Counted from the stretch's first letter, positions 12,648 through 57,083 are shown. The stretch: DNA of 64,000 nucleotides from an uncultured Bacteroidota bacterium (GCA_963783435.1 CAWANQ010000011.1:12808-76807), one strand, 5' to 3'. Made by a program: numbers and translations. The notes: a model not told the origin generated them from the letters alone.

Positions 12648-12780
12648 GGTAGAAGGTAGAAGGTAGAAGGTAGAAGGTGATTGGTGATTGGTGATTGGTG
12701 ATTGGTGATTGGTGATTGGTGAGTGGTGAGGGTTGATTGGTGATTGGTGATTGGTGATTGGTGAGGGGTGAATGGTGACA
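12648..12780 (+). repeat. heptamer array A: 19 in-phase units, (GGTAGAA)4 then (GGTGATT)6 and variants
   Basis: Counted directly. It starts 3 nt after the MATE stop. Every unit carries TAG or TGA on the + strand, and the whole array contains a single C. Confidence 0.95.
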
Positions 12781-13047
12781 GCTGGCTGCGCCAGATTAGA
12801 AAAAATGAGAGGAGCCGGTTGCAGAACCGAGGCGAATCGAAGATCGGCGAAGCCAACCCGAGCTCGATGAGGCCAAAGGCCGAGTCAAATGTGACCGGCT
12901 TTTCACTTTCTGTAAAATTGCGTAACTTGCAACAGATATGAATCCTAACATCAAACATATCAACCTTTACCATTCCTACGGAATTGGTCTCTACGAGTGC
13001 TGGATGTTCTATCATTAGCACCCGTGGGCAGGCAGCGTGATTTTTGC

Positions 13048-13126
13048 ATCACCACCCACCCCTCACCCCTCACCGCTCTCCACTCACCACCCACTATCCA
13101 CTGAGTACTATTTACTACCCACTATT
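13048..13126 (-). repeat. heptamer array B (about 11 units, G/T-rich strand is the minus strand)
   Basis: The + strand reads catcaccacccacccctcacccctcacc...ccactatccactgagtactatttactacccactatt. It ends exactly at the ATG at 13127. Confidence 0.9.
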
Positions 13127-13921
13127 ATGATTACCTATTTTGATATCAAACGCTTTGCGGTCCATGACGGACCAGGAATCCGCACCACGGTATTCCTGAA
13201 GGGTTGTCCTTTGCGTTGCTGGTGGTGTCACAATCCTGAGAGTCAGGCCAAAGAGCCATTTACCATAGATATCGAGAGAAGGGTAAATGGGAGAAGTGTA
13301 CCTGGAAAGAAAACTTATGGGGAGCAGATAGATGGTGCCGATCTGATGGAGACCATCCTGAGGGATCGTCATTTTTACGAAGAGTCGGGAGGGGGAGTTA
13401 CTTTTTCGGGCGGTGAACCGCTGATGCAGTTAAATGAACTGGCTGAACTTCTTATAGCCTCCAGGCTCAATGGCCTGCACACTGCTGTGGATACAAGTGG
13501 CTTTGCAAGGAGGGAGGATTTTGAGCGAATTTTGGGTAACACCGATCTTTTTCTGTACGACCTCAAGCACATGGATCCGGAGCTGCATAAAAAGTATACG
13601 GGGGTGGATAATAAGCTGATCCATGCCAATGCAGACTATCTTCTGAATATTGGAGCCCATGTGATCTTCAGGATTCCTGTGATTCCTGACGTAAATACCT
13701 CCAGCGATGAGGTGGCCCGGATGATTGGGTTTCTGAACGAGCGTTCTGAAGTGGTAAAAGAGGTTCATTTGCTGCCCTATCATCGCATTGCGGAGAACAA
13801 GTATTTCAAATTGCGAATGAAGCAGCCGCTTCAAAAGGTAAAGGAGCCCGATCAGACCTTTATGGAGCAATTAAAAAAAGAATTTGAAAACAGCGGACTG
13901 GAGGTAGTCATTGGTGGGTAA
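13127..13921 (+). CDS. glycyl-radical enzyme activating protein (radical SAM, PflA family)
   Basis: The radical-SAM cluster motif GCPLRCWWCHNPE is present, and the protein starts MITYFDIKRFAVHDGPGIRT. The track start at 13037 would translate repeat array B, so the ATG at 13127 (in frame, +30 codons) is preferred. Confidence 0.9.
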   Translation: MITYFDIKRFAVHDGPGIRTTVFLKGCPLRCWWCHNPESQAKEPFTIDIERRVNGRSVPGKKTYGEQIDGADLMETILRDRHFYEESGGGVTFSGGEPLMQLNELAELLIASRLNGLHTAVDTSGFARREDFERILGNTDLFLYDLKHMDPELHKKYTGVDNKLIHANADYLLNIGAHVIFRIPVIPDVNTSSDEVARMIGFLNERSEVVKEVHLLPYHRIAENKYFKLRMKQPLQKVKEPDQTFMEQLKKEFENSGLEVVIGG

Positions 13922-13953
13922 ACCTTTGATCACCTTTTTGAAAAATATTTGAA

Positions 13954-16317
13954 ATGACAGAACGGATTGTAAAACTAAGGGAGGAGAGCCTCCAGGCAGT
14001 CAACCGCCTTTCGGCAGAACGCGGGATTTTGGTTACTCAGTTTTATCAGGGATTATCTGCTACACAGTACTCCATTCCTGTTCAGCGGGCCAAAGCCTTC
14101 GAGTACATACTGCAACATAAGGCCATCTGTATCAATGAAGGTGAGCTGATTGTAGGTGAACGAGGTCCGGCTCCCAAAGCCACACCCACCTACCCTGAGA
14201 TAAACCTTCATTCCCTGAAGGATCTGGATATTCTCGACAGTAGAAAGAAGGTCTCCTTTAAGGTGGACTCCGAAACCCGCAAGGCCTTCCAAGAGACAAT
14301 TATTCCATACTGGACGGGTAAGACAAACCGGGAGCGGATTTTTAATAACCTTGAATCCAATTGGCTGGACGCTTACGAGGCGGGTATGTTTACCGAGTTT
14401 CAGGAGCAGCGGGCTCCGGGTCATACGGTGCTGGGAAGTAAAATCTACCGGCAGGGTATGACAGATATCATTGAAGAGGTCCGGAGCGCGATTTCCGGCC
14501 TGGATTTTCTGAATGACCCGGAGGCCTACGACAAGAGGGAAGAGTTAAAGGCGATGGAGATCACTGCAAGGGCTATCATTATGTATGCAGAAAGGCATGC
14601 AGTCCGCCTGGAAGAACTGGCTGTCCTGGAACAAAATTCTGAGCGAAAGCAAGAGTTGCTGAATATGGCCCATGTTTGCAGAAGGGTTCCCGCCCAGGCC
14701 CCCACAAATATGCATGAAGCACTCCAATACTATTGGTTTATCCACCTGGGAGTTATTACCGAATTAAATCCCTGGGACTCTTTCAATCCCGGTCGATTGG
14801 ATCAACATCTTTTCCCATTTTACACAGCCGATTTAAGTTCAGGCAGCTTAACCCGGGAGGGTGCAGTGGAACTGCTGCAGTCCTTCTGGGTGAAGTTCAA
14901 CAACCATCCCTCCCCGCCCAAGGTGGGGGTAACTGCTGAAGAGAGCAATACCTATACCGATTTTTGCCTGATCAATGTGGGAGGGTTAAAAGCCGATGGA
15001 TCCAATGCGGTCAACGAACTCAGTTTTGTGATCCTGGATGTGATTGAGGAGATGCGTCTGCTTCAACCCTCATCCATGGTGCAAATCAGCAAGAAGAATC
15101 CGGACAGCTTTGTGGAGCGCACCGTAAAGATTGTAAAGACCGGATTTGGACAGCCCTCCATTTTTAATACGGATGCAATCGTTCAAGAATTGGTTCGACA
15201 GGGCAAGAGCCTTGAGGATGCCCGCAATGGAGGCGCTTCCGGCTGCGTGGAGAGTGGCGCTTTTGGTACGGAAGCTTACATACTGACTGGCTATTTTAAC
15301 CTGGTGAAGGTATTGGAAGTGACCCTTCACAATGGCGTGGATCCGCTTACGGGAAAGCAGATAGGGATAAAGTCGGGCGAAGTGAAGACCATGGAATCGT
15401 TTGAGGAATTGCTTGCGGCCTTCTCCAGGCAACTAAAACACTTTATCGATATCAAGATTACCGGGAACAACCTGATTGAACGCATTTTCAGTACACATTT
15501 GCCGGTTCCCTTTCTCTCTCTTCTGATTGACGATTGTATGGCCAATGGCAAGGATTACAATTGCGGGGGAGCCAGGTATAACACCAGTTATATTCAGGGA
15601 GTTGGGCTGGGTTCCATTACCGATATGTTTGCAGCCATTGAGACCCATGTATTTAGCAAGCAGAACATGAGCATGGAGACCTTCCTGAAGGTATTGGCCG
15701 ATAATTATGAAGGGCACGACGAATTGCGGGCCGAGCTCCTCTATGAGACACCCAAATATGGAAACGATGACGACAGGGCGGACCAGCATGCCAGCTGGGT
15801 TTTCGATGCCTTTTATGAGGCAGTAAATGGACGAAAAAGTCCCCGTGGAGCCACCTACCGGATCAATATGCTGCCCACCACGAGCCATGTCTATTTTGGC
15901 AAGGTGGTAGGGGCCACCCCCGATGGCCGCCTGGCTCATGAACCCCTCTCAGAGGGAATCTCACCTTTCCAGGGTATGGACAAACTAGGGCCCACCGCAG
16001 TTCTGAATTCTGCGCTTAAAATCGACCATCTGAAGACCGGGGGAACCCTGCTCAACCAGAAGTTCACCCCTGAATTTTTTCAGGATGATCGCAGCATTCA
16101 GAAAATAACCCAGTTGATCCGCAGCTATTTCAGAATGGACGGCCACCACATCCAGTTTAATGTGGTTTCTGCAGACACCCTGCGCGATGCCCAGAAACAT
16201 CCGGAGAAGTATCAGGACCTGATTGTGCGTGTGGCCGGCTACAGCGATTATTTCAACGACCTGGGGCCTGAGCTGCAGGACGAGATCATACGCCGCACCG
16301 AACATAGTAGTACTTAG
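13954..16317 (+). CDS. hypD: glycyl radical enzyme (PFL-like), probable trans-4-hydroxy-L-proline dehydratase
   Basis: 787 aa with the glycyl loop VRVAGYSD (G762) and the thiyl loop GCVE (C431/E433). It is paired with an activase. The substrate call rests on remembered HypD active-site positions that match at a constant offset (see findings). Confidence 0.85.
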   Translation: MTERIVKLREESLQAVNRLSAERGILVTQFYQGLSATQYSIPVQRAKAFEYILQHKAICINEGELIVGERGPAPKATPTYPEINLHSLKDLDILDSRKKVSFKVDSETRKAFQETIIPYWTGKTNRERIFNNLESNWLDAYEAGMFTEFQEQRAPGHTVLGSKIYRQGMTDIIEEVRSAISGLDFLNDPEAYDKREELKAMEITARAIIMYAERHAVRLEELAVLEQNSERKQELLNMAHVCRRVPAQAPTNMHEALQYYWFIHLGVITELNPWDSFNPGRLDQHLFPFYTADLSSGSLTREGAVELLQSFWVKFNNHPSPPKVGVTAEESNTYTDFCLINVGGLKADGSNAVNELSFVILDVIEEMRLLQPSSMVQISKKNPDSFVERTVKIVKTGFGQPSIFNTDAIVQELVRQGKSLEDARNGGASGCVESGAFGTEAYILTGYFNLVKVLEVTLHNGVDPLTGKQIGIKSGEVKTMESFEELLAAFSRQLKHFIDIKITGNNLIERIFSTHLPVPFLSLLIDDCMANGKDYNCGGARYNTSYIQGVGLGSITDMFAAIETHVFSKQNMSMETFLKVLADNYEGHDELRAELLYETPKYGNDDDRADQHASWVFDAFYEAVNGRKSPRGATYRINMLPTTSHVYFGKVVGATPDGRLAHEPLSEGISPFQGMDKLGPTAVLNSALKIDHLKTGGTLLNQKFTPEFFQDDRSIQKITQLIRSYFRMDGHHIQFNVVSADTLRDAQKHPEKYQDLIVRVAGYSDYFNDLGPELQDEIIRRTEHSST

Positions 16318-16440
16318 TGGATAGTAGTACTTAGTGGATAGTAGTACTTAGTGGATAGTAGATAGTAGATAGTGGATAGTGGATAGTGGATAGTAGTACT
16401 TAGTGCATAGTGGATAGTAGATAGTAAATAGTGGGTGGGT
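16304..16440 (+). repeat. array C: 17-mers ATAGTAGTACTTAGTGG (x3, plus 1 variant) interleaved with ATAGTRG heptamers
   Basis: Counted directly. It begins inside the last 4 codons of the glycyl radical enzyme (GRE), and the stop TAG at 16315-16317 is part of the first unit. Confidence 0.95.
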
Positions 16441-16495
16441 TTTCGCTTTAGATCACTATCTTGCATTGACCATATTACAATGTTTGATAGCCCGT

Positions 16496-17734
16496 ATGAT
16501 GCAACTGCAAAAGAATAGATATTTGAGAAACCTCCTGTACCTGTTGACGGCCCTATTTATGACGGTCTCCTGTGATATGCGGACAGGTCAGATTCTGCGC
16601 GGAGTAAGTTTTCTTCTTGATTCGGTGGAAATGGCCCATGCCTCCGATACACGTATTTCTTACTGGAATGTATACCTGCAAGGAGACGATGGAGTTTACT
16701 CCGTGCAGGGTGAGGTGGTCAGCAAAGCAGCCTATGATGCGCTGGACAGGCAACTGAAACAGCAATTTCCGGTTGTGACAAACGAGGTGCTGCTCCTAAC
16801 AGAGGATGGAAGCGGGGTGAAGGTAAACGGGCTTATCAATAATTCGGTGGCAAATTTTCGTGCCGCGCCCGGCAGCCGTAATGAAATGGTCACGCAGGCC
16901 TTGCTGGGTACTCCCGTCAGGATCCTGAAGGTGGAGGATGGCTGGGGGCTGGTGCAGACCCCCAATGGCTACATGGGTTGGGTGAATGACTCGGAGTTTT
17001 ATGCCATGGATCCGAAGGAAATGGCTGGTTTCAGGGAGGCACGGAAAGTTATATACACAGAACAATACGGAAGTTCATATACCAGTCCTGATGAAAACTC
17101 CATGCCAGTTTCCGATCTGGTGTTGGGCTGCATGTTATCTGTAGTATCGAGTGAGGCTGGATTTATCCAGGTTCAGTATCCCGATGGTCGCCTGGCCTGG
17201 GTAAAAGGGGAGGAGCTTGTTGAAGCAGAGGAGGTATTTAATCGCTCGCTTACAGAGGAGGGCCTGGTGGAGGCTGTATTGGAATTTAACGGGATACCCT
17301 ACCTGTGGGGAGGATCCTCTTCTAAGGCCATCGATTGTAGTGGACTAACTACCAATGTGTTTTTTATGAATGGAACCCTGCTGCCCCGGGATGCCGATCA
17401 GCAAGCGCTCTGTGGAAGGGAGATTAGCACGGAATATGATGATGAAAATCTGATGCCTGGTGACCTGCTCTTTTTTGGCAGAAAGGCCAGCGAGGAGCAA
17501 GCTGAATCTGTAATTCATGTGGCCATCTACCTGGATGATAGTGAGTTCATTCATGCTTCAGGCTACCGGGACAGGGTGAGTGTCAACAGCATGGATTCAA
17601 CCCGTGAAAACTATATCCCGGATTATCCTGAAATTTTTGTGAGGTCTGTCAGGATTCTGGGTGAAGAGCTGAAAGGTTTTGAACCCATCACACAGAACAT
17701 ATTCTACAAAGAGATTATCCATACCACTGAATGA
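16496..17734 (+). CDS. NlpC/P60 family peptidase with SH3b domains (YkfC-like gamma-D-glutamyl-L-diamino acid endopeptidase)
   Basis: The catalytic-Cys context is SSSKAIDCSGL, with a His in VIHVAIYL. Upstream SH3b-like repeats include NFRAAPG...GWVND. A lipoprotein-like N-terminus LTALFMTVSC is present. The ATG at 16496 is preferred over the TTG at 16466. Confidence 0.8.
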   Translation: MMQLQKNRYLRNLLYLLTALFMTVSCDMRTGQILRGVSFLLDSVEMAHASDTRISYWNVYLQGDDGVYSVQGEVVSKAAYDALDRQLKQQFPVVTNEVLLLTEDGSGVKVNGLINNSVANFRAAPGSRNEMVTQALLGTPVRILKVEDGWGLVQTPNGYMGWVNDSEFYAMDPKEMAGFREARKVIYTEQYGSSYTSPDENSMPVSDLVLGCMLSVVSSEAGFIQVQYPDGRLAWVKGEELVEAEEVFNRSLTEEGLVEAVLEFNGIPYLWGGSSSKAIDCSGLTTNVFFMNGTLLPRDADQQALCGREISTEYDDENLMPGDLLFFGRKASEEQAESVIHVAIYLDDSEFIHASGYRDRVSVNSMDSTRENYIPDYPEIFVRSVRILGEELKGFEPITQNIFYKEIIHTTE

Positions 17735-18867: not shown

Positions 18868-18873
18868 AGCCGG

Positions 18874-23642: not shown

Positions 23643-23650
23643 ATTCTTAA

Positions 23651-37795: not shown

Positions 37796-37883
37796 GGAGA
37801 GATGCCGGAGTGGTCGAACGGGGCGGTCTCGAAAACCGTTGTGCCCCTCGCGGGCACCGGGGGTTCGAATCCCTCTCTCTCCG
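37796..37883 (+). tRNA. tRNA-Ser (anticodon CGA)
   Basis: Folded by hand. The acceptor stem is GGAGAGA/TCTCTCC. The anticodon stem-loop is GCGGT-CTCGAAA-ACCGT. There is a long variable arm tgcccctcgcgggca and a T-loop GGTTCGAATCC. CCA is not encoded. Confidence 0.9.
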
Positions 37884-37893
37884 CAAAACAATG

Positions 37894-37930
37894 AATAACC
37901 CACAGCCAAACGGCTGTGGGTTATTTTATT
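37894..37930 (+). terminator. intrinsic terminator after tRNA-Ser
   Basis: A 14-bp stem aataacccacagcc/ggctgtgggttatt with loop aaac, followed by ttatt. Confidence 0.75.
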
Positions 37931-37975: not shown

Positions 37976-38015
37976 AATAACCCTTTTTGCGCAGACATGC
38001 GCAAAAGGGGTTATT
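37976..38015. repeat. second AATAACCC...GGGTTATT hairpin
   Basis: aataaccctttttgcgc-agacat-gcgcaaaaggggttatt forms a 16-17 bp stem with one bulge. It has the same terminal octamers as the terminator hairpin 80 nt upstream. Confidence 0.7.
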
Positions 38016-38048
38016 CATTGTTTTGTAGGTCCTCCCTCAAAGGGATCA

Positions 38049-38121
38049 AGAGCGAAGCGAATAATCCCATTGGGAGAGCGAAGCGAATAATCCCATTGGG
38101 AGAGCGAAGCGAATAATCCCC
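38049..38121. repeat. 26-nt tandem repeat x2.8 (agagcgaagcgaataatcccattggg)
   Basis: There are two perfect copies (38049-38074 and 38075-38100) and a third truncated copy. Confidence 0.9.
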
Positions 38122-38184
38122 CAAAGGCTCACCCCCGGGCATTTAAAATTGTATTAAATTTGAATAGATATCGTTCAGACCAGC

Positions 38185-45494: not shown

Positions 45495-45601
45495 ATCCCG
45501 GGGAGTGGTGACAGATAAAAGTAAAAAAAATGTGGAAATTTTTATGGAATAGATGTGAACCTGTCATCCTATGGTTGAAGTCAAACTTAAAAATAGAAAT
45601 C

Positions 45602-47542
45602 ATGAAAGCAATAATCTCAATCGGAATCGTACTGTTTTTATCCGCATTTAGTCTGGCCCCAATGCAGAACCGAATAATCAGTGGAATCGTATCTGATGAA
45701 CACGGAAATCTGCTCGTTGGCGTCAATGTGATAGAAAAGGGAACCCACAATGGCACTGTAACTGATATGAATGGTGCTTATCAAATCTCTGTAAGTCAAA
45801 ATGCAAAGTACCTGGTCTTCTCGCATATAGGCAAGGAAACCAGAGATATAAAGCTGGGAAGTAAGCTTCAAATCAATGTAGTCCTTAAAACTGCAACCAT
45901 CGCACTTGAGGAGGTGGTAAGCCTGGAATATGAGGCTGATCACATAAGAGTTCATCATCCAACCTCCTCGGTGCATACAAGTTCCATGCAGGGAACCGTG
46001 AACGGTGTTGCCGTCAAGGGAGGCCACAACCGCTATTCCAAGCAGGCACATTATGCTCCTTCATATGCACCCGAGGCAAGATATATTCAGCACAATACGG
46101 AGGGTTACAGTGCCATTCACGAAAATGGATTTAAAGATGTGATGCATCAGCCCCTCTCCACTTTTAGCATCGATGTGGACAAGGCCTCCTATTCCAACAT
46201 GCGAAGGTTTTTGAACATGGGACAACTGCCTCCCAAGGACGCAATAAGGGTAGAGGAGATGATTAACTATTTTAATTATGATTACCCCGAACCTGAGGGA
46301 AAGCATCCCTTTTCTGTTTATACAGAAATCTCGGAGTGTCCCTGGAATGGTTCTCACCAGCTACTCCATGTGGGACTGAAAGGCAAGAGCATTGATAAAT
46401 CGGAGCTACCTCCATCCAACCTGGTATTCTTAATAGATGTGTCGGGTTCCATGGGTGCAGCCAATAAGTTGCCACTACTGAAACAAGCTTTCAGAATGCT
46501 GGTGAATGAATTGAGACCTGAGGACAGGGTGGCCATGGTAGTTTATGCCGGTGCAGCAGGACTGGTTTTGGAATCCACTCCCGGATCGAAGAAGTCTGAA
46601 ATTCTGTCGGCACTGGATCAATTGCAATCCGGGGGATCCACTGCAGGTGGCGCCGGACTGAAGCTGGCCTACAAGGTGGCCCAGGAAAACTTCATCGAAG
46701 ATGGAAACAACCGGATCATTCTGGCTACCGATGGAGATTTCAATGTGGGTTCTTCCAGCAATGCCGAGATGGAGAGAATGATTGAAGTGAAGCGGGAAAA
46801 GGGTGTCTTTATGACCGTTCTTGGATTTGGGATGGGCAACTATAAGGATGATAAAATGGAGATCATTGCAGACAAGGGAAATGGAAATTATGCCTACATC
46901 GATAACATTCAGGAAGCACGCAAGGTATTTATTACCGAGTTTGGAGGCACGCTCTTTACCATTGCCAAGGATGTGAAGTTCCAGATTGAATTCAATCCTG
47001 CCCGAGTCAAAGGATACAGGCTGGTGGGCTATGAGAACCGACTGCTGAATGACGAGGATTTTAATGACGATAAAAAGGATGCAGGCGAGATGGGTGCCGG
47101 TCATACAGTCACGGCCCTTTATGAACTGATCCCTGCCGGATCCGATGAATCACTGAAGAGTATAGATGCATTAAAGTACCAGTCTGATGGGAGCGAGTCC
47201 AAAGCCATGGCAGAGGTAAAAGTCAATCCAAATGCCGAGCTTATGACCGTTAAGCTTCGCTACAAGCAGCCTGATGGAAATAAGTCTACCAAGGTGGAGA
47301 TTCCCGTGAAAGGCAAAGTTCTGGACCTTGAAGATACGTCTGATAACTTCAGATTTTCAGCCTCCATAGCAGAATTCGGACTCATACTCAGGGATTCTGA
47401 ATACCTGGAAGATGGATCCATAAACCAGGTGATTGCCCTTGCAAAAGGGGCGCGTGGAGAGGATGAAGAGGGATATCGCTCGGAATTCCTGAAGCTGGTG
47501 AAGCTAGCTGACACTCTGAAAGACTGGACTGCGGAAAAATAG
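45602..47542 (+). CDS. von Willebrand factor type A domain protein (YfbK-like) with N-terminal CarboxypepD_reg domain
   Basis: The MIDAS motif is LVFLIDVSGSMG, followed by ...ILATDGDFNVG. The start is set at the signal peptide MKAIISIGIVLFLSAFS. Confidence 0.85.
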   Translation: MKAIISIGIVLFLSAFSLAPMQNRIISGIVSDEHGNLLVGVNVIEKGTHNGTVTDMNGAYQISVSQNAKYLVFSHIGKETRDIKLGSKLQINVVLKTATIALEEVVSLEYEADHIRVHHPTSSVHTSSMQGTVNGVAVKGGHNRYSKQAHYAPSYAPEARYIQHNTEGYSAIHENGFKDVMHQPLSTFSIDVDKASYSNMRRFLNMGQLPPKDAIRVEEMINYFNYDYPEPEGKHPFSVYTEISECPWNGSHQLLHVGLKGKSIDKSELPPSNLVFLIDVSGSMGAANKLPLLKQAFRMLVNELRPEDRVAMVVYAGAAGLVLESTPGSKKSEILSALDQLQSGGSTAGGAGLKLAYKVAQENFIEDGNNRIILATDGDFNVGSSSNAEMERMIEVKREKGVFMTVLGFGMGNYKDDKMEIIADKGNGNYAYIDNIQEARKVFITEFGGTLFTIAKDVKFQIEFNPARVKGYRLVGYENRLLNDEDFNDDKKDAGEMGAGHTVTALYELIPAGSDESLKSIDALKYQSDGSESKAMAEVKVNPNAELMTVKLRYKQPDGNKSTKVEIPVKGKVLDLEDTSDNFRFSASIAEFGLILRDSEYLEDGSINQVIALAKGARGEDEEGYRSEFLKLVKLADTLKDWTAEK

Positions 47543-47573
47543 TACTCAGTGGGTAGTGGATAGTACTTAGTTT
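47539..47573 (+). repeat. array D (about 5 heptamers: atagtac tcagtgg gtagtgg atagtac ttagttt)
   Basis: The vWA stop TAG (47540-47542) lies in the first unit. It shares a 15-nt identity (aatagtactcagtgg) with the reverse complement of array B. Confidence 0.85.
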
Positions 47574-47577
47574 TTTA

Positions 47578-47618
47578 ACAAGGAGAGCCGGTCGCATGTG
47601 CGCCGGCTCTCCTTTTTA
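47578..47618. terminator. bidirectional intrinsic terminator between convergent genes
   Basis: ggagagccgg-tcgcatgtgcg-ccggctctcc is flanked by T6 upstream and T5 downstream. Confidence 0.8.
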
Positions 47619-47634
47619 ATCTTGCTTCCAGAGC

Positions 47635-48390: not shown

Positions 48391-48550
48391 TCTCTTTTAT
48401 ATTGAATTAGTATTTCATGAAAGTTTCAGTAGCAGGTTTAAAAATAGATTTTTTTCTGATCCCTGTGAAATAAATGCCCTGAAAATAGGCGGCCGAATGA
48501 TTATTTATTAACTTAGACTAACACTAAGCGTTGATATTTAGTTATTTATT

Positions 48551-48940
48551 ATGGATAATCCCCCGGAATATCAGTGGAATGAGAAGCACATTCTCGTAGT
48601 CGAAGATGACGAATCGAGTGCCTTTCTGTTGGGAGAGATCCTGAAAGGAACAGGTGCAATTATTGACTTCAGCACCGACGGTGAGGATGCCATTGAATTT
48701 ATAAGGCAAAATCCGGATACAGATTTAATCCTGATGGATATCCATCTTCCTGAGAAGGACGGATTTACCGCTACCCGTGAGATTAAGTCATTTGCCAGGA
48801 ATGTGGTGGTCATAGCTCAGACGGCCTACGCCCTCTCCAAGAACTACCGTGAGGCCAAGGAGGCCGGATGCGATGATTTTCTGACCAAACCGCTAAGTCC
48901 GGGTTATCTGCTGGGTCGTATGAACGATTTTCTTGCCTGA
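48551..48940 (+). CDS. stand-alone response regulator receiver protein
   Basis: 129 aa. REC motifs are ILVVEDDE, LILMDIHLP (phospho-Asp) and TKP. Confidence 0.85.
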   Translation: MDNPPEYQWNEKHILVVEDDESSAFLLGEILKGTGAIIDFSTDGEDAIEFIRQNPDTDLILMDIHLPEKDGFTATREIKSFARNVVVIAQTAYALSKNYREAKEAGCDDFLTKPLSPGYLLGRMNDFLA

Positions 48941-51337: not shown

Positions 51338-51351
51338 TGTGGGGATGCTAT

Positions 51352-52437
51352 TTAGGATACGGGTTTAAGATGTGCTCTGAGGCGAATGGGTTGGTGATCG
51401 CTGTATTGAAAATCTACATCAATGGTCTCTACCTTTTCTAGCTCTACATTGGGGGACAACAGGTAGTAGTCTATCACTGTGGTTAGTGTGGTGGACTGGT
51501 CATAAGGTGTTGAAACACGTCGGTTTGTGGGTAGTTCAGGGTCATAGGCCCAGGTCCATTCCGGCCCAAGGTAATCCTTATCCACATAGGTGAGATTGAT
51601 GGTGTCGAACAGATGGGAGGGAAGCTCAGGGGCAAGTCCGTATGGGGTCTGGTTCCAGTCTCCGCCCACAATCACATAGTTTCCTTTCTTGTATTCGGAT
51701 TGAAGAAATACCCTTAAAAATGACATCTGCTGGGTCCTGAGGGAACCATCGTCATAAGCAGAATTGTGGGTATTTACAATGAGTAACTCTTTCCCATTGT
51801 TCAAGCCAAAGCGGTTCACCAGAAAACATCTGTCGAGCATAAATAATTTCATAGGCCAGGAATAATTCCCTGGAAAGCTGTGACGCTCAACGCTTAGGGG
51901 GCTGTATTTTGCCAGGGTCATCAAACCAGACTCTACTTTGCCCATGGGTTCATTCAGCGGGATGGGAATAAAAGCCACATTGTAGTTTTTCCCAAAACTA
52001 TAGTGATAATCAACAAATAACTCCTTTACAATCTCATATTCATTGATGTGATAGCTTCTTTTGGAATTTTTATCTACCTCCTGGAGAAGGATAAAGTCAT
52101 AATCCAAATAGTTGGAAAGGGTGCTGGAAATTCCTTCCATATTCTGGAGAACACCCTCCTCGGTAGGACGCATCATCTCCCCTCCGTCGTAGAAAAAGTC
52201 CATGGAGGCATCCAGACCGGCGTAGCCAATGTTCCAAATAAGCAGATCCAGGCTCGCAGTATCGGCGATCTGTTCTGAAGGATTTTCATTTACATAAGAG
52301 GTGACCTCTGCGGGCCGATAATCATCTATTGTTGCAAAAACCAGAAAAAGCAGAAAGCCAACAACCAGGATAAGCAAAAGATAAAGAAAGGGGCGGATAA
52401 TACTCATTCGGATAGGGTTAACAACTCTAAAGTACAT
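51352..52437 (-). CDS. endonuclease/exonuclease/phosphatase (EEP) family protein
   Basis: 361 aa with an N-terminal TM helix. EEP motifs are LLIWNIGY, ILLQEV, VNTHNSAYD, GGDWN and SDHQPI. Confidence 0.8.
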   Translation of the reverse strand: MYFRVVNPIRMSIIRPFLYLLLILVVGFLLFLVFATIDDYRPAEVTSYVNENPSEQIADTASLDLLIWNIGYAGLDASMDFFYDGGEMMRPTEEGVLQNMEGISSTLSNYLDYDFILLQEVDKNSKRSYHINEYEIVKELFVDYHYSFGKNYNVAFIPIPLNEPMGKVESGLMTLAKYSPLSVERHSFPGNYSWPMKLFMLDRCFLVNRFGLNNGKELLIVNTHNSAYDDGSLRTQQMSFLRVFLQSEYKKGNYVIVGGDWNQTPYGLAPELPSHLFDTINLTYVDKDYLGPEWTWAYDPELPTNRRVSTPYDQSTTLTTVIDYYLLSPNVELEKVETIDVDFQYSDHQPIRLRAHLKPVS

Positions 52438-52508
52438 AATAATCCCAAATTCTGAAGGTTGGTCATGTAGAAATTATTTATAAATTGACCCCCGCTAAAC
52501 TCTACTCT

Positions 52509-53868
52509 ATGAAAAACCGATTGCTTTCCATCTGTTTTATAAGCTTAATATGTGCTGCCACGTATGCCCAGGAAGCCGAAGAACTTGCACCTCTGAAACA
52601 AGACAAGGTAAAAACGGGGTTTAACCTGGGAGGTGTTCCCGTGGTGGCTTATGATTCGGATATCGGGTTTAAATATGGGGCTCTGGTGAACTTATACTGG
52701 TATGGGGATGGTTCAAGATATCCGCAATATGATCATTCGCTTTATATGGAGTGGAGCCGCACCACCAAAGGCAATGGCATCAATCAGATTACCTATGAAA
52801 CTGATAAATTATTGCCTGGGATCAGGTCCCTTTTTGAGGCCAGCTACCTCACTGAAAAGGCACTTGATTTTTATGGATTTAATGGGTACCAGGCTGTGTA
52901 TGACCTGGATTTTGAGCAGAATGGTTACGATTCAGAAGGGTATGCCAACAGGTTGTATTACCGCCACTCCAGGAAGCTACTAAGGCTTAAGGCCGATTTT
53001 CAGGGGGAGATCATCGGTCAGAAGCTTCGCTGGCTGGGTGGGATCGCCTACTATGGCACTACCATAGACTCGGTGGATATTGACGGCTTAAATGAAGGCA
53101 AGGATGAGGATCTGCTGTCGCACAACTCCCTCTATGGAAACTATGTGGATTGGGGAATGATAAAGGGTGACCAGGCCAATGGTGGAAATCATACCATCCT
53201 CAAAGGGGGACTTATTTATGATACAAGAGATAATGAACCCAATCCCTTCACAGGCGATCTGGTCCGAAATGCAGCTACATTATGCACCCTCATTTATGAG
53301 CAATACGGATTATGGCTATTTACGTCTGATTCTTACCCATCGGCAATACTTTACCCTGATTCCTGAATGGATGAACCTGGCTTACAGGGTTTCTTACCAG
53401 GGCAAAATTGCAGGAGAGATGCCTTTTTACATGATGCCATTTATGTTCCAGAGTGCACCCAAACTTACCACTGATGGATTGGGAGGTTCAAAAACGGTTC
53501 GTGGCGTCAGGCGCAACCGGATTGTTGGGGATGGATTTGTCTTTGGAAACTTCGAGTTGAGAGGAAAAATTCTGAGGACCACCCTGTTCAAGCAAAATTT
53601 CTATATCGCACTCTCTGCATTTGCCGATGCCGGAATGGTAGTTCAGAAATATAATTTTGATTATTCAGGATTGCCTGATGAATTGCCGGCTGACCTGCCA
53701 GATCAGATCATCGACCTGGAAGCCAAGGAGATTCCTCATATAGGATTTGGCGGGGGGATTCACTTTGCCTTGAATCAAAATTTTATAATCACCGTTGATT
53801 ATGGCATGGCAGCCAAAAAATCGGATGGAGATACGGGCTTATACATCAACCTGAACTACCTTTTTTAA
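52509..53868 (+). pseudogene. Omp85/BamA-like outer-membrane barrel protein, split by one extra base
   Basis: ORFs 52485..53366 and 53167..53868 join as ...YDTRDNEPNPFTG|IWSEMQLHYAPSFMSNTDYGYLRL... if one base near 53256-53259 is skipped. The C-terminus ...LYINLNYLF is typical of OM barrels. Confidence 0.65.
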
Positions 53869-53882
53869 GCTGAAGCCAGCTT

Positions 53883-54899
53883 TTACAGGTGTTTGCTTTC
53901 ACTAACACGCGGATATAAGCGAAGTGCGTTTTTGTAATATATAAGTTCCAGAACCTCTCGGGGTAAGTTTAAACCTTTGATTGCTTCCATTCCGAAGAAG
54001 CTGCCTTCCACCATATCATCACTTTCAAGAATACGAAAACAACGATTATAGGCCTTGGCTCTGTTTAGGTTTTCTTCATTTGCTTCCCATCGCCCGATAT
54101 CAGTTCCAAATAAAATCCGGTCGGCGTATTCAATCATAAAATCCCTGAGGTTTTCAGAAGATACCATATTGAAATATTGAAAAGTTGCCGCAAGGTCCAC
54201 ATGGAAATTAGGATATGTGGAAAGGAGAAAACGTAGATAATCGATTTGTGCATCCTGGCACACCAGCCATGAACCATGGGCAGCAACAATTTTTAAATCA
54301 GGGTGCTTACTCAAGACATTATGTAGTCCAGTTATTTCCCTCCAGTATTCTACTGGATCTGCACACCACGGAGTGCGGTTTCCAAAGGGACCATTGGGAT
54401 CGGCAATATGCAAAGATGCAGCCAGGATTCCAAGTTCTTCCATCTTTGCAAACATGGCCTCGTTGGCTGGATCATCCACATAGGGGAATCCTTTTTCGCC
54501 CTCTTTTAATCTTCTGTAGTATGGTCCATACCAGATCTTATATCCAATAAACCCCTGATCGCGTTTGAGCTCCAGGTCATTGGGCTTATGTTTTAATCCC
54601 CGGGCAGCTTCGTAGTCTCCATAAGCACAGAGCATTCGATTCTGGCTAAGCAGAAGAACAGAATCTGGATTTGTAACCGGATGATTTCTGTCGCTAAGGT
54701 TTATCCACATGGCCAGATCCGTCGAGTATTCAGTCAACAAAATATCCCTTACATCCAGATATTTTTGAATGGCTTCATAGTCATTTCCAGCATGTGTATG
54801 AACATCAATTCTTGGTATATCGGGATAGTTGGTTTTTATCTGTGATAATGCTTCTGAAACAAGCAGAGTTAGCATGCAGATGGTAAGTGCGGCTCTCAT
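53883..54899 (-). CDS. amidohydrolase-2 family metal-dependent hydrolase (secreted)
   Basis: 338 aa with a signal peptide. Motifs are RIDVHTHAG, AAHGSW and LFGTD. Confidence 0.75.
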   Translation of the reverse strand: MRAALTICMLTLLVSEALSQIKTNYPDIPRIDVHTHAGNDYEAIQKYLDVRDILLTEYSTDLAMWINLSDRNHPVTNPDSVLLLSQNRMLCAYGDYEAARGLKHKPNDLELKRDQGFIGYKIWYGPYYRRLKEGEKGFPYVDDPANEAMFAKMEELGILAASLHIADPNGPFGNRTPWCADPVEYWREITGLHNVLSKHPDLKIVAAHGSWLVCQDAQIDYLRFLLSTYPNFHVDLAATFQYFNMVSSENLRDFMIEYADRILFGTDIGRWEANEENLNRAKAYNRCFRILESDDMVEGSFFGMEAIKGLNLPREVLELIYYKNALRLYPRVSESKHL

Positions 54900-54922
54900 A
54901 TGACTATACGTTTTTGTTGTCC

Positions 54923-55579
54923 TCAGGTATTCACATTACATTCCCTGTAAAACTGGTCCAGGAACTCCAGCATGTATTGATGTCGTCCATCTGCCATGGC
55001 TTTACCTGTGGAGGTATTCATCAAATCTTTCAGCTTAAGAAGCTTTTCATAGAAATGATTGATGGTGGGCGCATCCGATTTATGATAGGCTTTTGGATCT
55101 TTGTACTCCTGAAGAGGGATGGAAGGATCATAGATAAGCCTGTTCTTAAAGCCTCCATAGTTAAAGGCTCTGGCAATTCCGACTGCACCTATGGCATCCA
55201 GGCGGTCGGCATCCTGAACGATTTTGAACTCAATGCTGTTGATGCGATTTTGTGGAAATCCGCCCTTGTAGGAGACATACTTAATGATGCTTTGAATATG
55301 CTTAGCTGTTTCGCCCTTTACCCCCAGCGTGCTCAGAAAGTTGAAGGCCAGCTGACTCCCCAGGTCTTCATCTCCCCCGTTAAATTTTGCGTCTGAAATG
55401 TCATGCAGCAATGCAGCCAGCTCGATGGTGAGCAGATCTCCCTGGCCCTCCTGATCCCAAATGTATCTTGACATGTTCCACACCCTTTCGATGTGATACC
55501 AGTTGTGGCCACCTTCCGCATCAGCCAGCAGCTCCTTTACAAAAGCAACCGTCTTTTCTATCAAATTCTCAGCTTCCAT
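54923..55579 (-). CDS. HD domain phosphohydrolase
   Basis: Motifs are GHNWYHIERV and LAALLHDISD. The ATG at 55579 is preferred to the GTG at 55582. Confidence 0.85.
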   Translation of the reverse strand: MEAENLIEKTVAFVKELLADAEGGHNWYHIERVWNMSRYIWDQEGQGDLLTIELAALLHDISDAKFNGGDEDLGSQLAFNFLSTLGVKGETAKHIQSIIKYVSYKGGFPQNRINSIEFKIVQDADRLDAIGAVGIARAFNYGGFKNRLIYDPSIPLQEYKDPKAYHKSDAPTINHFYEKLLKLKDLMNTSTGKAMADGRHQYMLEFLDQFYRECNVNT

Positions 55580-55580
55580 C

Positions 55581-55632
55581 ACTACCCATTACCCATTAAC
55601 CCATTAACCCATTAACCATTACCCTTCTACCC
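55581..55632 (-). repeat. array E (7 units of 7-8 nt: ACTACCC ATTACCC ATTAACCC x2 ...)
   Basis: Counted directly. On the minus (gene-sense) strand it reads gggtagaagggtaatggttaatgggttaatgggttaatgggtaatgggtagt. It occupies almost the whole rnfA-to-HD spacer. Confidence 0.95.
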
Positions 55633-55643
55633 GTTTAGCGCAG

Positions 55644-56216
55644 CTAAACTATCCCCGCAAACCCCATAAAGGCAAGGGCCATCAAGCCGGCTACGATGAA
55701 CGCGATGGGAACGCCTTTTAAGCGAGCCGGTACATTCAGCAGATCCAGCTGCTCCCGAATCCCTGAGAAGGTAATCAGAGCCAGGCCGAAACCTACCGCA
55801 TTTCCAATGGCATAAACCGTACTCTCCAGCAAATTAAAGTCCTTTTGAACTGCCAGGACTGCCACACCCAGAACGGCACAGTTGGTGGTTATAAGAGGCA
55901 AGAAGATTCCAAGTGCCTGGTAGAGTGGGGGACTGATTTTTTTCAGGATGATCTCCACCAGCTGGACCAGGGATGCGATGACCAGAATAAAGGTGATGGT
56001 CCGCATATAGATAATATCCAGAGGAACCAGTACCGAATAGTAGATCAGATAAGTGACCAGGGTGGCGATGACCATCACAAAGGTCACAGCGCCGGTCATT
56101 CCAATGGCAGTCTCGACCTTGCTGGAGACGCCTATAAAGGGGCAGATTCCCAGGAACTGGTTGAGTACAATATTGCTGACAAATACAGCGCCTATAATGA
56201 TTAAGATATATTCCAT
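55644..56216 (-). CDS. rnfA: Rnf electron transport complex subunit A
   Basis: 190 aa and polytopic. The RnfA pattern is FVSNIVLNQFLGICPFIGVS, and it is last in the rnfBCDGEA order. Confidence 0.95.
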   Translation of the reverse strand: MEYILIIIGAVFVSNIVLNQFLGICPFIGVSSKVETAIGMTGAVTFVMVIATLVTYLIYYSVLVPLDIIYMRTITFILVIASLVQLVEIILKKISPPLYQALGIFLPLITTNCAVLGVAVLAVQKDFNLLESTVYAIGNAVGFGLALITFSGIREQLDLLNVPARLKGVPIAFIVAGLMALAFMGFAGIV

Positions 56217-56218
56217 GG

Positions 56219-56806
56219 TCAGCTGGTTTTTTCTTTGAGCATGTTGGCTAATACAATCAGGTATCCCAGGGCAATAAATGCTCCCGGAGGCAGGATAAAC
56301 AGAAGCAATCCATCCCCACTAATCAGTTTCAGGCCAAAGAAGGCACCGCTTCCCAGCAGCTCTCTCACTGCCCCAAGCACCGTAAGTGCCATGGTGAAAC
56401 CAAGTCCCATTCCGGCCCCATCCACCAGGGAGGACCAGATGGTGTTTTTAGAGGCAAAGGCTTCTGCTCTTCCCAGCACCAGGCAGTTGACCACAATCAG
56501 TGGTATAAATAGACCCAGCGCATCAAACAGAGAAGGAACATATCCCTTCATCACCAGTTCGACCACGGTCACAAATGAGGCAATGATCACAATAAACGCG
56601 GGGATCCTTACCTTATCCGGGATTACATTTTTCACAAGCGAAACCACCAGGTTGGACATCACCAGCACAAAAGTGGTGGCCAGTCCCATCCCAAGTCCGT
56701 TAATGGCCGAGGTGGTCACCCCCAGTGTAGGACACAATCCAAGGAACAGCGCAAACACTGCGTTCTCTTTGATAAATCCTTTGCTAAAATTTTTCCACTG
56801 ATTCAT
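56219..56806 (-). CDS. rnfE: Rnf electron transport complex subunit E
   Basis: The RnfE pattern is FIKENAVFALFLGLCPTLGVTT. The ATG at 56806 is preferred, because the track start at 56854 would extend into repeat array F. Confidence 0.9.
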   Translation of the reverse strand: MNQWKNFSKGFIKENAVFALFLGLCPTLGVTTSAINGLGMGLATTFVLVMSNLVVSLVKNVIPDKVRIPAFIVIIASFVTVVELVMKGYVPSLFDALGLFIPLIVVNCLVLGRAEAFASKNTIWSSLVDGAGMGLGFTMALTVLGAVRELLGSGAFFGLKLISGDGLLLFILPPGAFIALGYLIVLANMLKEKTS

Positions 56807-56844
56807 ATGTAAGTATAAAGTTGAAAGTATAAAGTCTATTTTTT

Positions 56845-57083
56845 CACTACGCACTAACCACTAATCACTAACCACTAATCACTAATCACTACCCACTACT
56901 CACTAACTTACTATCCACTACCCACTACCCACTACCCACTACCCACTACCCACTACCCACTACCCACTACCCACTACCCACTACCCACTACCCACTACCC
57001 ACTACCCACTACCCACTACCCACTACCCACTACCCACTACCCACTACCCACTAACCACTATTCACTACCCACTACTCACTATT
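56845..57083 (-). repeat. array F: 34 heptamer units, 19 of them perfect CACTACC (sense-strand GGTAGTG), 56916-57048
   Basis: Counted unit by unit. There are 9 variant units, one 8-nt phase slip, 19 perfect units, then 5 variant units. The rnfG stop (57072-57074) and its last 3 codons lie inside the array. Confidence 0.97.

Follow-up and report, generated by a model that had tools for sequence, protein, structure and literature searches.

The heptamer arrays at gene ends in the window, by which we mean the whole 64-kb stretch of DNA analyzed here, are real, fast-evolving tandem repeats of 7 bases from an uncultured marine Bacteroidales host. They are a new example but not a new class, since both the kind of repeat and its placement rule are already known. 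The arrays are best read as the Bacteroidales counterpart of the heptamers in Xanthomonas, Nostoc, Beggiatoaceae, and some Bacteroidetes. The explanation that we favor, as probable if far from secure, is a clade-wide family of heptamer repeats that are driven by slippage and tolerated at ORF ends through stop codons in all frames.

Heptamer Arrays in the Window

Six period-7 arrays, designated A to F, had been proposed in a sequence-only reading of this DNA. All six are present at the expected positions, but E shows mixed periods of 7 and 8 and D consists of only about two composite units. TRF assigned a period of 7 to A, B, C, and F, whose units are thus arranged head to tail, and made no call for D (47539-47573). 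An autocorrelation scan of the window at periods 4-12 detected segments at period 7 only (5 segments, 512 nt), plus E at period 8. The proposed depletion of C was evident, with C counts on the G-rich strand of 1/134 in A, 3/79 in B, 5/137 in C, 3/35 in D, 0/52 in E, and 1/239 in F. Each array carries 4-41 stop triplets on the G-rich strand versus 0-7 on the complement. For the family as a whole, the consensus unit is TRGTGRN (G-rich strand) or YYCMCYR (complement). Array density is about 6-8 per 64 kb in the window versus 13 per 1.26 Mb in relatives. CRISPR arrays have repeats of 24-48 nt and unique spacers, whereas the 7-nt units here are contiguous and lack spacers. The only match to Rfam 15 covariance models at gathering score in the whole window was a tRNA-Ser, and the region 12600-13200 gave no Rfam 15 match at E ≤ 0.09.

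All six arrays adjoin an ORF boundary located 5' of the G-rich strand, and in each the G-rich strand either follows a stop by no more than 50 bp as the coding strand or precedes a start by no more than 50 bp as the non-coding strand. Five of them (A, C, D, E, and F) are found 0-11 nt after stops, including cases that contain the stop, while B has the opposite orientation and its end is 1 nt from the start that follows. The flanking genes, identified with Pfam and NCBIfam, encode MatE, a radical-SAM activase, the glycyl-radical enzyme HypD, vWA/YfbK, RnfA, RnfE, and RnfG.

It is extremely improbable that errors of assembly or sequencing created the arrays on this contig alone, a condition that the sequence-only reading had named as decisive. 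Assembly of tandem repeats is difficult, and the 34 copies of F could be a wrong estimate. However, array B is identical in the independent Logan assembly L194 (99.97% identical), an array occupies the F position in 5 of 6 other contigs encoding RnfE, contigs of six or more other samples, as well as many MAGs, have arrays in the same spacers, and similar arrays were found in more than 120 metagenome hits and 107 viral-contig hits. For the existence of the arrays, the independent assembly and the other contigs rule this reading out, while the exact copy number is uncertain.

One extra purine-rich, C-poor array, with a period of 9-10 and the unit GATAAAGTA, was called by TRF on the minus strand (2212..2267). 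It codes for the last ~13 codons of an MFS transporter and ends 4 nt short of the next ATG.

Position and Strand Polarity in Wider Samples

A total of 1.26 Mb of sequence from 80 related species contains 13 period-7 arrays, compared with 0-5 arrays at other periods; all but one of the 13 lie in intergenic DNA. In other species, the rnfG|rnfE, rnfA|HD, and post-MatE spacers carry period-7 arrays with unrelated units, for example GACTTTC, AGTCGAA, CAGGAAA, and AAGTCGA. When position was weighed against sequence in sister genomes, as had been suggested, array position proved to be kept at these three sites but unit sequence did not. Conserved position with variable length and sequence is also seen at the hypD-leader site.

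The G/T-rich strand is the sense strand at gene ends in five of the six arrays, as originally noted, although the window sample alone is without significance. The sense preference of the C-poor strand at stops was recovered in larger samples. Among Bacteroidales relatives, 15 stop-adjacent arrays are G>C and 3 are C>G against a 50:50 background (p = 0.004), and the ratio among 190 environmental arrays is 43:17 (p = 0.001); ORFs in these large samples are crude, being the longest ORFs only, without a gene model. Part of this stop-adjacent bias is a logical consequence of the stop triplet inside the unit. The "fixed" polarity that had been claimed does not hold as a general rule: environmental arrays between co-oriented genes (n = 79) include 43 in the sense and 36 in the antisense orientation, and C-rich sense arrays occur within the rnf operons of two relatives (L191 and L120). 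Start-adjacent arrays in the clade show no bias (7:6). The median distance to the nearest ORF is 22 nt on the 5' side of the G-strand versus 55 nt on the other side (p = 0.002).

Arrays in the rnf Operon

Array E (55581..55632, minus strand) contains about six copies of GGGTTAAT/GGGTAAT (TRF 55583-55624, mixed periods). It begins 11 nt past the RnfA stop, between the rnfA stop hairpin and the ATG of an HD-domain gene. This triloop hairpin, GTTTAGC-TGC-GCTAAAC (55633..55650, minus strand; read from the sequence by eye), straddles the rnfA stop. Equivalent GC-TNC-GC hairpins are present in L114-L119, and L121 has an AAG-loop hairpin in the same place. In the sister strains L002 and L003, the rnfA|HD spacer is wholly replaced by GGTGAAT-type units together with the hairpin type that closes array A.

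Array F (56845..57083, minus strand) comprises about 34 copies of TAGTGGG between rnfG and rnfE (TRF 56845-57081, CACTACC ×33.7). The final codons of rnfG and its stop lie within the array, and the RnfG C-terminus reads ...RAYDALNSE* in the window versus ...RAYGAFMESQKAN* in relatives. Directly upstream of the rnfE ATG lies a pyrimidine-rich mini-array, (NACTTTM)×4 (56808..56840, minus strand; TRF 56811-56835), and the same site in L118-L121 is occupied by GACTTTM or CACCTTT heptamers. The six other metagenome contigs mentioned above encode an identical RnfE, and only one of them is without an array at the F position; both contigs that extend to E have an array there. The rnfG|rnfE arrays in the identical-RnfE contigs, whose flanking DNA is 95-97% identical, have 8-12+ units versus 34 in the window, with different variants, although these numbers come from short-read contigs in which assemblers may have collapsed repeats. 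In the close relatives L114-L117 and L004, there is no array and rnfG and rnfE abut, and L004 has a recombination breakpoint at the spacer.

The G-rich arrays could fold into G-quadruplexes or recruit an RNA-binding protein in trailers and spacers, thereby tuning mRNA stability or the expression of rnfG versus rnfE and of rnfA. We regard this as unlikely. Arrays E and F do contain at least four G3+ tracts (6 in E and 21 in F, with loops of 4-5 nt). With G4 energies included, ViennaRNA predicts quadruplexes, and the folding energy drops in E (-1.3 to -6.2 kcal/mol) and in F (-45.8 to -56.5 kcal/mol). Moreover, arrays occupy the same spacers in several species, and comparable Xanthomonas heptamers are transcribed and form G4 in vitro (PMC4692102). 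No G4 motif is present in C or D, however, and A has GG tracts only; several runs of G3+ can be read in the complementary sequence of B. The units of relatives at the same sites are G-poor or contain C (GACTTTC, CACACTT), the close relatives with abutting rnfG and rnfE do without arrays altogether, and copy number ranges from 0 to 34 inside one species.

Arrays A and C and the Origin of the Repeats

Array A (12647..12780, plus strand) consists of (AGGTAGA)×4 followed by about 14 copies of GGTGATT (TRF 12647-12778: AGGTAGA ×4.6, GGTGATT ×14.7). Its first base is 2 nt past the MatE stop, and its sense strand is G/T-rich. The array is closed by a terminal hairpin module, ACAG-CTGGC-TGC-GCCAG (12778..12794, plus strand), which a sequence search found as a single copy within the window. 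At the A locus of L320, whose activase is 87% identical, one GTAGAAG and one GTGAT.GG are followed by the same hairpin, where the window has 4 and 14 units. Comparison of the two loci indicates that array A arose by in-situ expansion of single proto-units such as those present in this relative. Post-MatE spacers of other species carry period-7 arrays of their own, with units unrelated to those in the window.

Array C (16304..16440, plus strand; TRF 16304-16434) is built from the units TAGTGGA, TAGTAGA, and TAGTACT and contains the 17-mer ATAGTAGTACTTAGTGG. It codes for the final 3 codons and the stop of HypD, whose C-terminus is ...RTEHSST* in the window versus ...RTEHDSL* in relatives.

In the slippage account, proto-units in short transcribed spacers would grow and shrink in situ by slipped-strand mispairing, a step that we infer from the copy-number polymorphism and from the single-copy state in the relative. 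A translational filter, itself a presumed form of selection, would then set where and in which orientation arrays survive. On the G/T-rich strand, each unit carries TAG, TGA, or TAA, and since 7 is not a multiple of 3 these stops recur in all three frames, so that an array could abut or overrun the 3' end of an ORF while swapping only a few C-terminal residues. Such swaps are observed in RnfG and HypD. The complement, being stop-free with almost no G and almost no predicted structure, would be tolerated as the sense strand directly before a start, as in B; its scarcity of G leaves it with almost no ATG, GTG, or TTG starts and without any purine tract of the Shine-Dalgarno kind. In transcripts, the arrays most likely form 3' trailers, intercistronic spacers, and one 5' leader. 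Most of them are probably near-neutral filler, with B as the exception.

Shared Modules and Element D

A purely neutral model does not account for the modules of 14-21 nt that are common to different loci. The longer motif attributed to B, C, and D was recovered as ATAGTACTYAGTGG in B (minus strand), C, and D, with 11 matches versus 0.54 expected. Likewise, D and the reverse complement of B match exactly over 16 nt, one more than had been claimed. Sister strains have in their rnfA|HD spacer a 21-nt module (array end plus hairpin) that also occurs at locus A. The proposal that the arrays form a related family therefore stands for the 14-16-nt composite motifs and the 21-nt module, but relatedness among the units themselves is only weakly above chance. 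The same composite modules at different loci require some inter-locus transfer or conversion.

These modules could mean that array and hairpin transpose together as a small element of the REP, MITE, or SDR kind, mobile or dispersed, with gene ends as its insertion sites, a reading to which we assign a low probability. It draws on the occurrence of the composite ATAGTACTYAGTGG at three loci, on the module GGKTACAGCTGGCTGCGCCAG at the end of A in the window and in the rnfA|HD spacer of L002 and L003, on the related motif AGTACTCAG at the post-MatE site of L319, and on the recombination breakpoint of L004. Against it, no terminal inverted repeats or target duplications were seen when the array flanks were read by eye, and array boundaries match stop and start codons instead of element ends. 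The hairpin module occurs once in 64 kb, and at the A locus of L320 it is present without an array, the array at this locus being explained by in-situ expansion. The earlier suggestion of a REP-like element is not borne out, since the units are direct repeats and the sole inverted pairs are whole arrays versus each other.

Element D (47539..47573, plus strand) consists of about two copies of the composite ATAGTACTYAGTGG and includes the vWA stop codon. A separate intrinsic terminator (hairpin plus T-run) lies downstream of it at about 47580-47625. A scan for intrinsic terminators, defined as a G+C-rich stem-loop followed by a T-run, found none in arrays A, B, C, E, and F. The suggested terminator-like nature of the arrays is thus not supported: these five have no terminator-like site, F lies inside an operon, and D precedes a separate terminator.

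Array B and the hypD Leader

Array B (13048..13126, plus strand; TRF 13049-13094) consists of C-rich, G-poor heptamers in the leader of the hypD activase. The 79-nt sense strand, with 49% C and 4% G, stops 1 nt short of the activase ATG, and its RNA has a predicted MFE of only -2.4 kcal/mol over 79 nt. Upstream lies a leader ORF of 26 codons, MNPNIKHINLYHSYGIGLYECWMFYH (12939..13017, plus strand), which ends …GLYECWMFYH and has no match in NCBIfam. Six relatives, with activases 66-87% identical, have kept this ORF while showing synonymous changes in it, and the unit family YYCMCYR is found at B's site in six relatives. The order of promoter, leader ORF, C-rich array, and ATG is kept in seven lineages, whereas L322 lacks both leader ORF and array together. 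The conserved position and unit family of this array across such divergence are a second point for which a purely neutral model does not account. Because position and unit family are kept along with the leader ORF, array B is probably regulatory.

The largely open complement of the arrays produces artefactual ORFs, as had been pointed out. The ORF 12593..13021 is one of them and translates into the repetitive peptide HQSPITN. The effect also reaches public databases through extended activase homologues: N-terminal extensions are present in 9 of the 120 listed homologue clusters, and in the six clusters with (M/L)SAG extensions the reading frame passes from the leader ORF through the array.

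Array B is bipartite, its left half being complementary to A (41 nt at 80%, 270 nt apart) and its right half to C (40 nt at 83%, including 18 nt at 94%; 3.2 kb apart). Complementary arrays might act in pairs, either in RNA, through long-range duplexes that cover the start region or provide RNase III sites, or in DNA, as inverted repeats for inversion; we consider this very improbable. The predicted duplex energies of -94.9 and -75.5 kcal/mol lie beyond all 200 shuffles. In L315, the leader has TCGACTT units, the complement of the AAGTCGA units that follow MatE; L119 shows the same relation between the units preceding rnfE and those following rnfA. Yet complementarity is automatic where one unit family serves both orientations, it is missing in L317 and L319, and there are no inverted-orientation variants among the recovered contigs.

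Another reading holds that the arrays manage Rho, with C-free sense RNA hiding long untranslated spacers from Rho, C-rich antisense RNA terminating antisense transcription, and B serving as a rut site that forms, together with the leader ORF, a tna-like attenuator of the hypD operon. The sense strand has 0-4% C in A, C, E, and F, and B is C-rich, G-poor, and predicted to be unstructured. The layout kept in seven lineages and the joint loss in L322 are also in keeping with this reading. It is nevertheless doubtful as a whole, because L191 and L120 have C-rich, G-free sense arrays inside the rnf operon, and neither the 79 environmental co-oriented cases nor the start-adjacent arrays of the clade show a strand bias.

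For B itself, the array has the features of a rut-like site, being C-rich, G-poor, predicted to be unstructured, 79 nt long where some 60-80 nt or more are expected, and downstream of a leader ORF. We tentatively propose, with little confidence, that B is the working part of a conserved regulatory leader, in which the ribosome position on the leader ORF would gate Rho or another C-binding RNA protein at the rut-like heptamers, as a tna-like attenuator for hydroxyproline catabolism in Bacteroidales. By extension, the A and C trailers could modulate it by pairing. The precedent is the tnaC-rut leader of the E. coli tna operon, which resembles B in having a short conserved leader ORF, then a C-rich, G-poor, unstructured stretch, upstream of catabolic genes. 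B differs in that it has no boxA and no sequence similarity, its C-rich stretch is a heptamer array, and its Rho dependence is putative. If true, the attenuator would give heptamer SSRs a concrete mechanistic role.

Relationship to Known Repeat Classes

REP/BIME elements of enterobacteria are imperfect palindromes that fold into hairpins and are mobilized by RAYT transposases. Like the window arrays, they are dispersed in 3' trailers and intercistronic operon spacers and are often mis-annotated, but the window arrays are head-to-tail direct repeats with little self-complementarity. Phase-variable SSRs are located in 5' coding regions or promoter spacers and shift the reading frame or the promoter spacing. 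The window arrays share with these contingency-locus SSRs presumably slippage-driven copy-number change and strain-to-strain polymorphism; being located after stops or in a leader, however, they change length while sparing the gene frame and, apparently, promoter geometry.

The statement that no described element class has these properties was wrong, as two reports describe closely comparable repeats (Rehm et al., 2015, PMC4692102; MacGregor, 2015, PMC4679880). Rehm et al. (2015) described G-rich heptamers at a distance of 0-50 bp from an ORF, either behind its stop (coding strand) or ahead of its start (non-coding strand), including the intergenic heptameric SSRs GGGAATC of Xanthomonas and GGGGA(C/T)T of Nostoc, whose position is kept between relatives while length and sequence vary (PMC4692102). 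The window arrays resemble them in the 7-nt unit, in copy numbers from 2 to dozens, and in being strongly intergenic between co-oriented ORFs. The placement is the same, including stop overlap and the before-start case of B, the nearest ORF is always on the 5' side of the G-strand, and related species hold repeats at the same site that vary in length and sequence. The differences lie in the units (TRGTGRN), each of which includes a stop triplet, in the host, an uncultured anaerobic Bacteroidales, and in the lack of preference for four units. Furthermore, G4 capacity defines the Rehm class, whereas canonical G3+ tracts in the window are found in E and F.

MacGregor (2015) reported heptamer direct repeats (TAACTGA and others) in Beggiatoaceae, Cyanobacteria, and five Bacteroidetes (PMC4679880). 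These are also intergenic arrays, with up to 43 copies in Bacteroidetes, with other heptamers within the same spacers, and with close relatives that lack repeats there. Many lie a few nt upstream of a start, like B, and contigs break at the arrays; most window arrays, in contrast, follow stops. The TAACTGA unit, searched as TAACTGATAACTGA with up to 2 mismatches, was unmatched in the window. A further difference is that neither an alternate RNA polymerase beta-prime subunit nor any other candidate binding protein was identified here.

Three tandem heptanucleotide repeats of Calothrix PCC 7601, cited in PMC4692102, are older than the 2015 reports. The window arrays resemble such cyanobacterial repeats as tandem heptanucleotides scattered in non-coding DNA with several variants per genome, and differ in phylum and unit sequences. 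We take the Calothrix repeats to be the STRR repeats, reportedly described by Mazel et al. in 1990.

Period-7 arrays in the window and their neighboring genes

The window derives from an uncultured marine-sediment Bacteroidales bacterium, and its RnfE is 96% identical to the RnfE of a MAG labelled "uncultured Bacteroides sp.". TRF identified arrays of period 7 at 12647-12778 (array A), 13049-13094 (array B), 16304-16434 (array C) and 56845-57081 (array F, 33.7 copies), and an array of mixed period 7/8 at 55583-55624 (array E). Element D (47539-47573) amounts to roughly two copies of a composite motif, and TRF made no call there. An autocorrelation scan over periods 4-12 found window segments at period 7 alone (512 nt), plus array E at period 8. 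With these qualifications for D and E, the six arrays that the sequence-only reading had placed at gene ends are borne out.

The genes adjoining the arrays encode MatE, a radical-SAM activase, a glycyl-radical enzyme, vWA/YfbK, RnfA, RnfE and RnfG. With 1225 bits, above the cutoff of 1100, the glycyl-radical enzyme scored as trans-4-hydroxy-L-proline dehydratase HypD. An exact-protein lookup for the ROK gene adjoining D gave no match. Array A begins 2 nt beyond the MatE stop and array E 11 nt beyond the RnfA stop; the stops of HypD, vWA and RnfG fall inside C, D and F, respectively. Array B is inverted and ends 1 nt 5' of the activase ATG. The G-rich strand contains 0-5 C per array and is dense in stop triplets, and its complement is nearly free of stops. 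An independent assembly contains the identical array B, and other samples have arrays at these same spacers; the arrays are therefore not an assembly artefact of one contig, an outcome that the sequence-only reading had allowed for.

The proposed relatedness of the arrays also holds. The motif ATAGTACTYAGTGG is common to B (minus strand), C and D, with 11 matches against 0.54 expected, and D shares an exact match of 16 nt with the reverse complement of B. Relatedness of the heptamer units by Hamming distance is weakly above the null for C-free heptamers, so the longer shared motifs are relied on instead. The GGKTACA-CTGGCTKCGCCAG module may have spread by gene conversion or by mobility.

Several other identities were considered. 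Rfam searches returned nothing but one tRNA at the gathering threshold and no match at a permissive threshold. A terminator-like role, raised earlier, was dropped: a terminator scan found no such site inside A, B, C, E or F, D is followed by a separate hairpin and T-run, and F lies inside the rnf operon. CRISPR was ruled out because the repeats have no spacers. Neither terminal inverted repeats nor target duplications were seen at the arrays. G-quadruplex formation was ruled out as a unifying property, as A, C and D have no G3 tracts; only E and F, and probably the antisense of B, have such potential. BLAST of the arrays or of array-rich viral contigs against phage genomes gave no match, in a search whose low-complexity filter would remove a pure-repeat query.

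Comparison with known heptamer repeats

Intergenic heptamer repeats have been known in cyanobacteria, as STRR, since 1990. The heptamer SSRs GGGAATC in Xanthomonas and GGGGA(C/T)T in Nostoc are intergenic, located between co-oriented ORFs and always closest to the 5' neighboring ORF (Rehm et al., 2015; PMC4692102). They are found 0-50 bp after a stop on the coding strand, stop overlap included, or 0-50 bp before a start on the non-coding strand. They are transcribed, and their function was given as unknown. The SSRs of Xcc and Xac occupy the same position and vary extensively in length and sequence. In passages of that paper that cite other work, heptamers are described as over-represented among bacterial SSRs, and three tandem heptanucleotides are mentioned for Calothrix. 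In five Bacteroidetes, arrays of TAACTGA and other heptamers reach up to 43 copies, many of them immediately 5' of start codons, and the same spacer occurs without arrays in close relatives (MacGregor, 2015; PMC4679880). TAACTGA is absent from the window.

The window arrays follow the same placement rule as the SSRs of Rehm et al. (2015), the exception of B included, but differ in unit, in having no uniform G4 capacity and in lineage. The class is already known, and the window contains a new member in a new lineage. The observation made in the sequence-only reading is confirmed and its interpretation partly supported, and its claim that no such element class had been described is unsupported. 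The placement rule of heptamer repeats was shown in 2015, yet their origin and function were left unexplained. The window adds a well-resolved Bacteroidales example, population-level evidence for fast in-situ expansion and a simple translational-filter rationale for the rule.

Strand polarity and placement

A Bacteroidales set of approximately 1.37 Mb contains 19 period-7 arrays at -12 to +48 nt of a stop, compared with 0-5 for other periods. On crude ORF calls, the sense strand of stop-adjacent arrays has G>C in 15 cases and C>G in 3, against a 50:50 trailer background (p=0.004), and start-adjacent arrays show no bias (7:6). Pattern scans also yielded an environmental sample of 127 loci, from viral and metagenome sequences, with 190 C-free heptamer arrays in total. 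With similarly crude ORF calls, the environmental arrays ≤15 nt from a stop are polarised (43:17, p=0.001), and those between co-oriented genes are not (43 sense vs 36 antisense). In the environmental sample, the ORF located 5' of the G-strand is the nearer of the two neighbors (median distance 22 nt vs 55 nt, p=0.002). The strand polarity proposed earlier is real on the stop side, as a bias, and is not general.

Replication-strand bias was considered as a cause of the polarity. Genes of both orientations have a third-position GC skew of +0.045 on the + strand, whereas the G-rich strand of E and F is the - strand, which argues weakly against such a bias and for polarity that tracks transcription rather than replication.

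On some viral or metagenome contigs (among them L026, L043, L053, L069 and L071), 4-6 C-free heptamer arrays occur within 6-12 kb, indicating that other array-dense genomes exist, some of them classed as viral.

Turnover of arrays in the rnf operon

The strain set consisted of six metagenome contigs with an identical RnfE protein and 95-97% identical flanking DNA. The rnfG|rnfE spacer carries 8-12+ units in these contigs (TAGTGAG, TAGTGGT, TAGTGGG or TAGTGAT) compared with 34 in the window, and one of the six has no array. In two of the six, the rnfA|HD spacer instead has GGTGAAT-type units ending in ACAGCTGGCTGCGCCAG, the hairpin module that also closes window array A.

In 80 related species (1.26 Mb), period 7 is again the commonest short period, with 13 arrays, of which 12 are intergenic, vs 0-5 for any other period. 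Array density there is approximately 10-fold below that of the window, in short-read MAGs, which under-represent repeats. The comparison of position and sequence in sister genomes proposed earlier found the same spacers occupied by period-7 arrays with unrelated units: GACTTTC/GACTAAC 5' of rnfE and (AGTCGAA)x8 after rnfA in L119, CAGGAAA in L140, and CACACTT, C-rich in the sense strand, in L191. In the closest species (L114-L117), the rnfG|rnfE spacer is absent altogether.

A second, pyrimidine-rich mini-array (NACTTTM x4; 56808-56840, sense on the - strand) lies immediately 5' of the rnfE ATG. L118-L121 (RnfE 89-92% identical) have it too, in the form of GACTTTM or CACCTTT heptamers, and the post-rnfA array of L119 is the reverse complement of its rnfE mini-array. 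Small hairpins with a triloop, NNNGC-TNC-GCNNN, are complementary to the GCGAAGC mini-hairpin type. They are placed across or after the rnfA stop, ahead of the heptamers, in the window (55633-55650) and in L114-L119; in L121, the loop is AAG. In L004 (ERZ27251024), the RnfE protein is identical and the downstream DNA is 96.5% identical, the rnfG|rnfE array is absent and the 3' end of rnfG fails to align with the window, an arrangement suggestive of a recombination breakpoint at this spacer.

Leader ORF and array upstream of hypD

The MatE-activase-HypD-NlpC/P60 synteny is kept in relatives, which rules out that the hypD cassette recently inserted between inverted arrays. When the MatE|activase spacers were aligned, three conserved blocks emerged, namely a terminator 3' arm, a promoter-like GTAACTTGCA and a leader ORF of 26 codons, together with two variable array sites. 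The leader ORF (MNPNIKHINLYHSYGIGLYECWMFYH*; 12939-13017, + strand) is located between the promoter-like block and the hypD activase. Its C-terminus, ...GLYECWMFYH*, is kept with synonymous changes in six relatives (activases 66-87% identical). The leader peptide has no NCBIfam match. In the window, an insertion of about 85 nt (~12815-12895) rich in GCGAA/GCGAAGC is present in the loop of the MatE intrinsic terminator relative to the aligned relatives.

The first variable site is directly 3' of the MatE stop. L320, a relative, has a single GTAGAAG, a single GTGAT.GG and the hairpin that closes array A at this site, and the window counterparts of the two units are repeated x4 and x14. This alignment indicates that array A expanded in situ from proto-units such as those in L320. 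The second site, between the leader ORF and the activase ATG, holds a C-rich, G-poor heptamer array in 7/7 leader-bearing lineages (activase identity 66-100%). These arrays belong to one unit family, YYCMCYR, whose reverse complement, TRGTGRR, describes the units found in A, C, E and F. In L322, the leader ORF and the C-rich array are both absent. The complementarity of B with A and with C is striking in the window and is not kept in L317 or L319; it is to be expected whenever one unit family is used in both orientations.

Proposed origin of the placement rule

These comparisons demonstrate that the arrays are specific to period 7, hypervariable in copy number and expanded in situ from proto-units, and that their position persists while units turn over, with polarity on the stop side. 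Gene ends have been altered: the RnfG C-terminus is overwritten (...RAYDALNSE* in the window vs ...RAYGAFMESQKAN* in relatives), and in HypD the three terminal codons have been replaced relative to its relatives.

We infer that the arrays are generated by slipped-strand mispairing and sorted by a translational filter. A strand with TAG, TGA or TAA in each unit would provide stops in all three frames, making contact with, or invasion of, an ORF end harmless. The complement would have no stops, scarcely any G and, judging from B (predicted -2.4 kcal/mol over 79 nt), no structure; being nearly free of G, it would contain hardly any start codons and lack purine-rich runs resembling a Shine-Dalgarno sequence. 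Leaders in Bacteroidota are unstructured and G-poor, and the stop-free, G-poor complement would suit such leaders.

Slippage and filtering leave three features unexplained, one being the complementarity of B with A and with C described above. The presence of identical modules of 14-21 nt at different loci implies a measure of dispersal or conversion. That the hypD-leader array and its leader ORF are deeply conserved together suggests a function; the array is possibly a rut-like platform in a tna-like attenuator. The remaining interest lies in this conserved module, a testable candidate for the first functional heptamer array.

Annotation artefacts

As predicted earlier, the stop-free strand produces spurious ORFs, including ORF 12593..13021. 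Among 120 listed clusters of activase homologues in public databases, nine are 286-308 aa, compared with 263-267 aa for the rest. N-terminal extensions of about 20-45 residues were seen in P0003, P0008, P0009, P0034, P0038, P0039, P0042, P0064, P0071 and P0083. Six extensions start with (M/L)SAG, the +1 frame of the leader-ORF end, the gene caller having run through the stop-free C-rich array; two of these six are visibly repetitive with a 7-residue period (SPITIHLSPITTHH, TVPHPPSTVPHPPF). The extensions are a systematic annotation artefact that is already in public protein databases.

Other repeats in the window

Near tRNA-Ser (37796-37884), a 26-nt unit (AGAGCGAAGCGAATAATCCCATTGGG) containing the GCGAAGC mini-hairpin motif is repeated three times at 38049-38126, two copies being perfect. 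It is preceded by nested perfect inverted repeats, among others 37884-37901 with 38008-38025. Together these may be a small structured element or the scar of an integration. At 2212-2267 (sense on the - strand), a C-poor, purine-rich tandem array (GATAAAGTA) has a period of 9-10. It encodes the C-terminal ~13 residues (EKVIKVDKVSESMQ*) of an MFS transporter, and its far end is 4 nt short of the ATG of the following gene; its placement logic is the same as that of the heptamer arrays, with a different period.
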